Source: Candidatus Saccharimonadota bacterium (GTDB lineage: Bacteria > Patescibacteriota > Saccharimonadia > Saccharimonadales > SZUA-47). Taken from it: DNA of 64,000 bases. Each line of letters begins with the position of its first letter. Position 1 is the stretch's first letter. Under the pieces are notes generated by a model, which was not told where the DNA came from, searched no databases, and was given only the letters and a program-made list of their open reading frames with translations. A program made the position numbers and the translations under genes. Positions 39,293-39,570 of the stretch are shown here, one piece after another. The stretch is taken from assembly GCA_016700315.1 (NCBI GenBank), contig CP065013.1, forward strand, positions 193,449 to 257,448, read 5' to 3'.

Positions 39293-39570
39293 AGTATCAA
39301 GTATGAATACACAGATAGTAGTAAGTAGTTAGTAGTAAGTAGCAAGCGTAAAATTCTAAATTCTAAACTCTAAACGAAGTAAGTATCACGTATTACGTAT
39401 CATGTATAAAGTATGAATTTCCCCTCAGTAAACAGTCATCAGTAAACAGTTATCAGTATTCTTCCGTAAACCATAAACTATCAACTATCAACTATCAACT
39501 CGTCCCTAGTCCCTAGTCCCTAGTCCCTAGCCCGTAGCCCTAATCACTCTAACCTCTAACCTAACCGCTG
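39293..39570. repeat. mosaic heptamer array
   Basis: Runs GTAGTAA/GTAGTTA, ATTCTAA x2, NNGTATN x5, NNNCAGT x5, TATCAAC x3, TAGTCCC x3 and TCTAACC x2. Confidence 0.9.

Follow-up and report, generated by a model that had tools for sequence, protein, structure and literature searches.

The heptamer array upstream of comM

The 64-kb stretch of DNA analyzed here (the window) comes from a genome of an uncultured Candidatus Saccharibacteria bacterium, in the Candidate Phyla Radiation, and contains an array of tandem 7-nt repeats between a minus-strand helix-turn-helix gene (38157-38912) and comM/yifB, which lies outside the repeat on the plus strand (39646-41160) and encodes a Mg-chelatase-like AAA ATPase of 504 aa. 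Our block parse shows that eight tandem heptamer blocks, set end to end, cover nearly all of 39290-39562 (~270 nt), with non-repeat junctions of 0-5 nt. A preliminary description of this DNA had reported a large mosaic heptamer array, and direct reading of the sequence located all the heptamers that it named: 39318-39534 consists of 31 heptamers in one frame, followed by the 6-mer TAGCCC (39535-39540) and then by TAATCAC TCTAACC TCTAACC, and the frame reaches further upstream, to 39290, as TCGAGTA TCAAGTA TGAATAC ACAGATA.

Analysis of self-similarity across 39293-39570 gave a period-7 self-match of 0.638, against 0.272 +/- 0.026 and a maximum of 0.358 in 5000 shuffles, with values of 0.20-0.30 at other lags except the multiples 14, 21 and 28. 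The periodicity is thus far above the shuffled expectation and, together with the listed heptamers, bears out the mosaic array originally described. Tandem Repeats Finder likewise reported overlapping period-7 and period-14 arrays throughout 39317-39562. Applied to the whole window, a strict threshold returned 10 period-7 regions (735 nt) and 0-1 region for each of the other periods from 5 to 12, and 50 first-order Markov shuffles of the window contained 0 period-7 regions, compared with the 10 observed. The periodicity is genuine and is specific to 7 nt.

The array had also been described as about 32 frames without a phase break. The blocks do abut, with the 31 heptamers above in frame, but this phase carries little information, since blocks built from unrelated units have no natural register and any abutting runs can be read in one frame. 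For example, the two GTAT-type blocks, which share a unit, have GTAT at 39294 and at 39383, an offset of 89 nt (12 x 7 + 5), and are therefore out of phase, and the period-7 autocorrelation falls to background by lag 56-63. We also tested a single ancestral unit for all blocks, which is not supported, as the in-frame similarity of heptamers at least 6 units apart (1.59 of 7) is not above that at other offsets (1.65-2.15).

All of the blocks are read on the plus strand. The left edge of the comM copy is block Y1, of GTAT type (TCGAGTA TCAAGTA TGAATAC, 39290-39310), which is homologous to window positions 63775-63795 and to ~850-880 of L009 (L-numbers denote related genome and metagenome contigs that we compared with the window). 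It is followed by the junction ACAGATA and block B (GTAGTAA GTAGTTA GTAGTAA GTAGCAA, 39311-39345), delimited by Tandem Repeats Finder and the block parse, by block C (GCGTAAA ATTCTAA ATTCTAA ACTCTAA, 39346-39373), and by a second GTAT-type block from the block parse, Y2 (ACGAAGT AAGTATC ACGTATT ACGTATC ATGTATA AAGTATG, 39374-39415). The junction AATTTCC then leads into block G, of CAGT type with a 14-nt super-period (CCTCAGT AAACAGT CATCAGT AAACAGT TATCAGT, 39416-39457), and the junction ATTCTTC into block H (CGTAAAC, CATAAAC and three TATCAAC, 39458-39499). Block D (TCGTCCC, three TAGTCCC, TAGCCCG and TAGCCC, 39500-39540) carries C3 tracts on the plus strand, and the parse ends with TAATCAC and block E (two TCTAACC, then T, 39541-39562). 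Beyond it lies a non-periodic right terminus, AACCGCTGCTCATCTCC... (39563-39585), that is common to family members (compare AATCGCTGCCCATGTCT in the copy at rpmB and AACCGCTACCCAAGTCT in L009). A single-base difference falls inside the array at 39541-39547, where the window has TAATCAC and the compared contigs (L001, L028, L030-L032), from the Saccharibacteria metagenome-assembled genome (MAG) GCA_029781765.1 and several other assemblies, have TAATCCC, so the window is not base-identical to GCA_029781765.1 at these positions.

No open reading frame (ORF) of at least 50 aa is present on either strand across 39020-39646, RNA folding of the array gave no structure signal on either strand (z = +1.22 and +0.35 against shuffles), and Rfam returned no match on the array, either in gathering mode over the whole window or in E-value mode over 38900-39660. 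From these results we infer that the array encodes neither a protein nor a structured RNA. Its base composition is skewed, with 35-39% C and 5-11% G in the H-D-E part, and on the minus strand 39504-39540 reads GGGCTACGGGCTAGGGACTAGGGACTAGGGACTAGGG, a canonical G-quadruplex motif (at least 4 units, tracts of G3 or longer, loops of at most 7 nt). The 64-kb window contains three such motifs (0.5 in shuffles), and all three are D blocks on the minus strand (28880-28910, 39504-39540 and 63909-63939), i.e., antisense to the gene that follows. Their units are GGGTCTA, GGGACTA and GGGCTAC, which match neither the consensus GGGNATC nor GGGGA(C/T)T.

A dispersed family with one block order

Each tandem heptamer was assigned to one of eight unit classes, and block order was parsed in ten copies of the element from the window and from related contigs. 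All ten are colinear subsets of a single master order of ~450 nt, Y B C Y D E F (xB) Y G H D E, in which the successive units are Y (GTAT), B (AGTAGYA), C (AAAYTCT), Y, D (TAGACCC), TAATCAC, E (TCTAACC), F (TCTTGAC), a spacer, Y, G (xxxCAGT), H (ATCAAC/ATAAAC), D (TAGTCCC), TAATCAC and E. The complete order, with every block, is present in L009, a sister Saccharibacteria MAG with flanks 96-99% identical to the window, in a ~450-nt copy at the orthologue of the 46.7-kb locus. It had been claimed that the block order of the comM array (GTAG, TCTAAA, GTAT, CAGT, ATCAAC, TAGNCCC, TAACC) is shared with copies at 28.9, 56.6 and 63.8 kb, and both the block parse and the colinearity of BLAST matches confirm this; among the ten copies examined, none departs from the common order. 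This shared, fixed order indicates that the copies descend from one composite element, and not from independent slippage at each locus.

Within the window, the comM copy (39290-39562, plus strand) has the order Y B C Y G H D E. A sister copy at 28831-29170, also on the plus strand and upstream of a DUF7927 gene at 29274, reads (Y) D E F (xB) Y G H D E. An inverted copy that had been missing from the earlier list lies on the minus strand at 46694-46805 (46701-46773 in the comparison of block order), between an M50 peptidase gene and the rpmB promoter, and is a short allele with the order C Y D (E). At 56534-56700 on the plus strand is a degenerate copy, B C Y x H (where x is G-like), with a terminator-like hairpin on one side and, on the other, the stop codon of a gene on the minus strand. 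The last copy (63726-64000, plus strand) consists of a left flank followed by Y B C Y D E F and continues to the window edge; its full allele in L042 is ~520 nt and is followed by tRNA-Arg(CCT). Outside the window, L023 carries Y B C x F (xB) Y G H D E, and the diverged relative L015 carries B C D x H D x H x E.

Four copies of the window share the 24-nt junction CCCTAATCACTCTAACCTCTAACC without a difference, compared with 0 expected, the left flank GGAACNATGAACGAGGAGGAG...CTAAACACTRGGTAGT is common to the 46.7- and 63.7-kb copies, and the right end TAAYCGCTRCYCA is common to the 39.3-kb copy, the 46.7-kb copy and L009. Paralogy of the surrounding genes was considered for the shared left flank and rejected, as the genes beside the 46.7- and 63.7-kb copies are unrelated. 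The density of the family is at least 5 copies in 64 kb, and all copies are intergenic.

The window also contains unrelated heptamer arrays, at 14025 (GAATGAG), 14065 (TCGTTCT), 22242 (TTCATCG), 26649 (GAGTCAT) and 33980 (GGCTGTT). The array at 33980-34120 is a degenerate period-7 tract of ~20 units (AACAGCC on the coding, minus strand; 62% match) that falls in the C-terminal tail of a 948-aa DUF8128/AAA ATPase ORF (33871-36717). It encodes the 7-residue repeats NSQQLTA, TGQQLTA and NGQQAPA, since 7 and 3 are coprime, and it resembles a heptamer array absorbed into coding sequence. Of these other-unit arrays, those within 14008-14107 adjoin the 5S rRNA gene and that within 22239-22281 lies just upstream of the 16S rRNA gene. 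The rRNA region is unusual: its rRNA genes occupy the minus strand (16S at 20741-22170, 23S at 15293-18408, 5S at 13891-14002), but the genes for tRNA-Ala and tRNA-Ile that stand between those for 16S and 23S (19051-19282) have plus-strand orientation. A match to D1-D4 of a group II intron occurs at 20458-20539, and the 23S-5S gap of ~1.3 kb holds an ORF.

Other repeats of the window are of different kinds. A second, unrelated dispersed family, with copies of up to ~230 nt at 31769-32001, 33618-33812, 41469-41526 and 53798-54029, occurs in both orientations, shows 98% identity between some copies and is centered on the palindrome CCTACTTTCTTGTCAGTACAAGAAAGTAGG. Local duplications are found at 59367-59781 and 59071-59226, beside a tRNA-Asp/Gly/Thr cluster, and include a duplicated tRNA 3' end with a terminator-like hairpin (59367-59446 and 59701-59781).

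The assignment of the host agrees with its ComM homologues, which are named Candidatus Saccharibacteria or Saccharimonadales. The exact ComM sequence is also present in the Saccharibacteria MAG assemblies GCA_029781765.1 and GCA_041909835.1, and in several metagenome assemblies whose origin is probably sewage. A 22-nt junction of the family was found in one related genome (L009) among 185,579 species representatives, plus two gammaproteobacterial loci that are short, chance-like matches and not arrays. In metagenomes it was found in only two further relatives (L015 and L016) and in several unrelated organisms with heptamer runs of CTCTAAC type. Both scans used one exact, very specific pattern, so these counts understate the frequency of other heptamer families. 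In the unrelated metagenome contigs L011/L013 and L014, from organisms of higher GC (~54%), the CTCTAAC-type runs occur as inverted pairs (a GTTAGAG-type run ... a CTCTAAC run), and that of L011 is near two tRNA-Ser genes; related heptamer units thus recur outside Saccharibacteria.

Alleles, array-less relatives and neighboring promoters

Contigs with essentially identical flanks carry three alleles at the comM locus. Allele A is that of the window, L028 and L030-L032. Allele B (L027 and L003) differs from it by -7 nt in block C, +13 nt at the Y/G junction, -7 nt in block H and +7 nt in block D, so that B has one unit fewer in each of C and H, and by 7 substitutions. Allele C, present in two independent assemblies (L029 and L033), has the order Y B C Y D E. 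Relative to the master, allele A lacks D E F xB Y, with block Y2 as the join point of the internal deletion, and allele C lacks E F xB Y G H D; judging from their structures, both can be explained by deletion between internally duplicated blocks.

Other loci of the family also vary. Arrays at the rpmB locus are ~110, ~420 and ~450 nt long, and those at the 63.8-kb locus are ~520 nt in the window and L042 compared with ~110 nt in L041 and L044-L048. In L043 (JGI 3300045333 Ga0490007_002908), positions 2136-2851 begin as the 63.8-kb type, continue as the 28.8-kb copy and lead into the DUF7927 gene, joining arrays that lie 35 kb apart in the window (63664-64000 and 28970-29274); this junction is either a repeat-mediated rearrangement or duplication, or an assembly chimera. 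The short-read contigs L002-L006 all end within the array. Apparent synteny differences of L032 and of L020/L021/L026 proved to be differences in gene calling and not rearrangements.

We compared the comM region with three relatives, L037, L038 and L039, whose ComM proteins are 82%, 70% and 64% identical to that of the window. Gene order is kept in all three (DUF8128 ATPase, comM, infC, rpmI, rplT and, further on, M50 and rpmB), and no period-7 signal is present upstream of comM in any of them. Directly upstream of the array in the window is a small-RNA candidate on the plus strand (39065-39250), consisting of a promoter, TTGACA-17-TAATAT, and ~150 nt with three hairpins. Its predicted fold has a minimum free energy of -39.6 kcal/mol, compared with -16.9 +/- 3.1 in shuffles (z -7.4), no Rfam family matched 39065-39250, and it is conserved beside comM with 89%, 81.5% and 77% nucleotide identity in L037, L038 and L039, respectively. 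Among the four sequences there are compensatory changes at three base pairs, and the single-stranded stretch GUGCUCAAAAACAAAAA is invariant. The distance from this hairpin element to comM is ~95 nt in L037 and ~220 nt in L038, with a non-periodic spacer in both, and ~400 nt in the window, the array accounting for the difference between L037 and the window. Similarly, the divergent M50-rpmB spacer is 60-65 nt in L038 and L039; it is much greater in the window and greater again in L009, with arrays of ~110 nt and ~450 nt, respectively. Since synteny is kept without the array in these relatives, the arrays are recent, lineage-specific insertions in promoter-upstream spacers.

At comM, the insertion falls downstream of the small-RNA candidate and upstream of the gene's own putative promoter (39581-39611, plus strand), which has a weak -35 (TTGCTC), a 17-nt spacer and a TG-extended -10 (TATTAT; TGATATTAT, ~39603-39611). 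This promoter is below the threshold of a consensus scan, and we place it from the sequence and by comparison with L037 and L038: the TG-extended -10 and the ribosome-binding-site region are conserved, as TGTGATATTAT...GGGGTGGCTAAGGAG in the window, TGTGATATATT...GGGGTGGCAAGGAG in L038 and TGTGTTATATT...GAGGAG in L037. The array had been suggested to lie in a possible comM leader. This suggestion is unsupported, because comM's own conserved extended -10 is downstream of the array and relatives without an array keep the promoter, although read-through into the array from the promoter at 39065 is possible. A structured comM leader or riboswitch was rejected, as the array shows no structure signal and no Rfam match, and is absent upstream of comM in relatives.

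At 4 of 4 assessable loci (comM, rpmB, tRNA-Arg(CCT) and the DUF7927 gene), the array has its E end oriented toward a promoter whose transcription is directed away from the array, at a distance of ~20-55 nt; this is suggestive but weak. With respect to a contingency-locus placement, the comM array is polymorphic and ends ~20 nt upstream of the putative -35, and it is neither between the -35 and -10 nor in an ORF. The D block would place a tract predicted from its motif to be capable of forming a G-quadruplex or i-motif ~40-80 bp upstream of the promoter.

Origin, possible functions and relation to known repeats

Taken together, we consider the array to be one copy of a lineage-specific, dispersed, non-coding compound heptanucleotide minisatellite family, with a probability of about 0.6. 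The genome expands heptamers specifically, as several unrelated 7-nt units have been amplified in the window and other periods are essentially absent. The number of units shifts in exact 7-nt steps in 3 of the 4 indels between alleles A and B, probably by replication slippage, and the alleles lack whole sets of blocks, probably lost through recombination between duplicated blocks (Y...Y and D-E...D-E). Spread among intergenic regions would probably have occurred by recombination-based copying rather than by transposition. The copies sit in promoter-upstream spacers, where an insertion interrupts no transcript, and the consequences would be mainly structural, i.e., a spacer that is lengthened and destabilized, and breakpoints for recombination and assembly.

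Several points weigh against this interpretation. The allele evidence comes entirely from metagenome assemblies, mostly of short reads, and repeats of this type tend to collapse or to be joined into chimeras; artefacts are possible for allele C and for the L043 junction, although allele C is present in two independent assemblies. Some indels are not multiples of 7 (13 nt between A and B, a net 115 nt between A and C), the absence of an in-frame sequence relationship between the blocks means that descent from one ancestral unit is not demonstrated, and no dispersal mechanism was identified for the copies. The retention of 100-520-nt arrays in several spacers of a highly compact genome hints at a non-neutral function, as does the orientation of the array 3' end toward an outward-firing promoter at the four loci described above.

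In a functional alternative, the arrays are orientation-specific cis-elements upstream of promoters (heptad protein-binding arrays and/or the D-block G-quadruplex or i-motif) that tune or insulate the promoter, a change in copy number acting as a rheostat or contingency switch. Such elements would account for the E-end spacing of ~20-55 nt at comM, rpmB, tRNA-Arg(CCT) and the DUF7927 gene, for D blocks being the sole G-quadruplex motifs in the window and lying on the antisense strand, a placement as for the GGGNATC repeats (PMC4692102), and for unit numbers that differ among strain alleles, and heptamer repeats do alter promoter output in other bacteria, with the hmw, ctxAB and Nostoc recF/recO repeats as precedents (10.1101/2022.06.06.494920; PMC8262952). 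We nevertheless regard it as unlikely, if worth keeping in view, since the same promoters in relatives carry no array and so do not need one, the neighbors are housekeeping genes (comM, rpmB, tRNA) and not typical contingency genes, and the variation of units between blocks makes a single sequence-specific binder improbable; moreover, the 56.5-kb copy is in a gene-tail position, and the orientation evidence rests on four loci.

Action at the RNA level, with the array transcribed as a long comM leader or as a 3' extension of the small RNA, seems to us very unlikely. The array could then be, for example, a Rho-loading (rut-like) tract that blocks read-through before comM, or a platform for RNA-binding proteins. 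A strong promoter, at 39065-39093, is directed into the region, only a weak T tract comes after the third hairpin, so that read-through is plausible, and the C-rich, G-poor composition of the H-D-E part, with plus-strand RNA no more structured than shuffles, would fit, C-rich, G-poor and unstructured RNA being typical of rut sites; the other-unit arrays beside the rRNA genes (14008-14107 and 22239-22281) are also in possibly transcribed places. Against this, a conserved promoter of comM itself lies downstream of the array, relatives that keep the small RNA and comM have no array, the rpmB/M50 locus has no upstream transcription unit that would read its array in the C-rich sense, and the array itself shows no covariation and no Rfam match. 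We give still less credence to a non-autonomous mobile element, either similar to a miniature inverted-repeat transposable element (MITE) or of a new type, in which the heptamer runs would be secondary expansions. In its favor, at least 5-6 copies that share non-periodic ends are dispersed over 64 kb, syntenic relatives have empty sites, and integrase and recombinase genes neighbor the 63.8-kb locus. Against it, the copies show neither significant self-complementarity nor terminal inverted repeats, none of them is bracketed by an inverted-repeat pair, a linked transposase was not found, target-site duplications, which were not specifically searched for, were not evident, and the ends of the copies differ, with the 39.3- and 28.8-kb copies having no left flank.

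With respect to class, the array shows tandem 7-nt units beyond chance, intergenic copies and unit-step polymorphism (in assemblies, not in long reads), and it is a member of a broad class, the heptanucleotide long simple sequence repeats (LSSRs) of prokaryotes. Heptamers are cited as the most abundant LSSR class in many bacteria, with slippage as their proposed origin (Mrazek, Guo and Shah 2007, via PMC4679880 and PMC4692102), and long repeat units have been reported mainly from large, GC-rich genomes (PMC4692102). As in other heptanucleotide LSSRs, the units here are arranged head to tail and are mostly intergenic, heptamers dominate, strains differ by 7 nt, and slippage is presumed; unlike them, the element described here concatenates eight units in a fixed order as a composite that is dispersed in multiple copies, and its host is a small-genome Saccharibacteria epibiont.

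The array is not, by their defining features, a cyanobacterial STRR sequence (repetitive DNA of short units in tandem), a TAACTGA array, a repetitive extragenic palindromic (REP) element or bacterial interspersed mosaic element (BIME), a MITE or a CRISPR array. STRR units of Calothrix and Nostoc are reportedly CCCCAGT, TTGGTCA and CAACAGT (Mazel et al. 1990). A resemblance to these had been proposed for the CAGT and CCCTAGT units, and CCCTAGT and AAACAGT are indeed each one mismatch from an STRR unit, but no exact STRR unit is present and, among the tandem words, only CCCTAGT is within one mismatch (of CCCCAGT), compared with ~0.55 expected by chance, so the resemblance is at chance level. The host is Candidatus Saccharibacteria and not a cyanobacterium (the hosts of STRRs being originally heterocystous cyanobacteria), and the likeness is one of kind and not of family: STRRs and the Microcystis arrays are also intergenic tandem heptamers, and a genome may hold more than one type of unit, in some cases combined within a single array. 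We know of no report in which STRRs form a multi-block master of fixed order whose derivatives arise by colinear deletion. Mixed heptamer arrays are described in Microcystis, and where sister Cyanothece strains differ in intergenic sequence around matched sets of TAACTGA repeats, they do so mostly by indels in steps of 7 nt (PMC4679880). The TAACTGA repeats of Beggiatoaceae, cyanobacteria and Bacteroidetes (MacGregor 2015, PMC4679880) share with our family the intergenic runs, the patchy, lineage-specific spread and the 7-nt indels between sister strains, and the CAGT block resembles the reverse complement TCAGTTA; they differ in that TAACTGA is not tandem here and in that our arrays are upstream of the promoter, not directly before start codons.

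A further parallel is found in Xanthomonas and Nostoc, whose GGGNATC repeats form G-quadruplexes in vitro, by circular dichroism spectroscopy, and are placed upstream of ORFs in antisense orientation (Rehm et al. 2015, PMC4692102), and another in the GGGACCG elements of Geobacter (PMC2700814). The minus strand of the D block, (GGGTCTA)n/(GGGACTA)n, is likewise a G3 tract plus 4 nt in 3-7 units, is intergenic and antisense to the downstream ORF, and is variable in copy number. Its unit is different, it shows no preference for exactly four units (~3-7 here), it is one module of a mosaic, and it lies ~100 nt from the ORF and not within 50 nt, its G-quadruplex being predicted from the motif. Among repeats with effects on expression, heptamer repeats affect the Nostoc recF and recO promoters (10.1101/2022.06.06.494920), 7-bp repeats upstream of the promoters grade the expression of hmw1A/hmw2A in H. 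influenzae (PMC8262952, PMC2424069), and the ctxAB promoter of V. cholerae carries TTTTGAT heptads (10.1101/2021.05.14.444153). The hmw and ctxAB repeats resemble our arrays as 7-bp tandem repeats upstream of a promoter with a copy number that varies among strains, but they consist of a single unit, belong to virulence genes and have demonstrated effects on expression, whereas the arrays described here are multi-unit mosaics beside housekeeping genes.

The BIMEs of E. coli are composed of ~35-nt imperfect palindromes in alternating orientation that are bound by gyrase and IHF (integration host factor). Our family is similarly a dispersed extragenic mosaic with a modular grammar and a variable number of modules per copy, but its modules are direct 7-nt repeats without palindromy. 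REP and related elements are discussed in PMC3116915. For the comM array, REP/BIME and MITE were rejected, since the fold z-scores are +1.2 and +0.35 and an inverted-repeat search shows only whole-copy inversions between loci, and a CRISPR array was rejected because the units are 7 nt, contiguous and without spacers, as opposed to repeats of ~24-48 nt with unique spacers. An operator of omega-repressor type (WATCACW) was also discarded, as a single AATCACT occurs per module and is not tandem, and the telomere-like CCCTAA/CTAACC motifs are a resemblance only, without supporting evidence. What is new is the host lineage, the fixed multi-block master with its colinear deletion derivatives, and the density of copies; in the full-text library that we searched, no paper mentions Saccharibacteria together with the term "heptamer" or together with both "tandem repeats" and "intergenic".

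Heptamer repeats in intergenic DNA were recognized decades ago in cyanobacteria, Xanthomonas, Beggiatoaceae and Geobacter, and what they do was never settled. Here such repeats occur in a compact, small genome of the Candidate Phyla Radiation, where neutral filler is less expected. These arrays break short-read MAG assemblies, may create chimeric joins, and could serve as markers for strain typing. In a more far-reaching proposal, which we consider improbable, the mosaic elements would be orientation-specific modules upstream of promoters, in which slippage and block deletion set the strength of housekeeping promoters strain by strain, i.e., a genome-wide contingency rheostat, and would also be hot spots of rearrangement. 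If this were true, an ultra-small genome poor in regulators would have heritable settings of its comM, rpmB and tRNA promoters, with the D block acting as an antisense-strand G-quadruplex or i-motif and the other blocks as heptads for DNA-binding proteins, and the elements would drive genome rearrangement of the kind suggested by the L043 junction between the 63.8- and 28.8-kb arrays. The natural alleles A, B and C at one promoter are a ready-made series for the effect of a heptamer array on transcription and, if the arrays are neutral, the family would still be a clear example of 7-nt-specific slippage.

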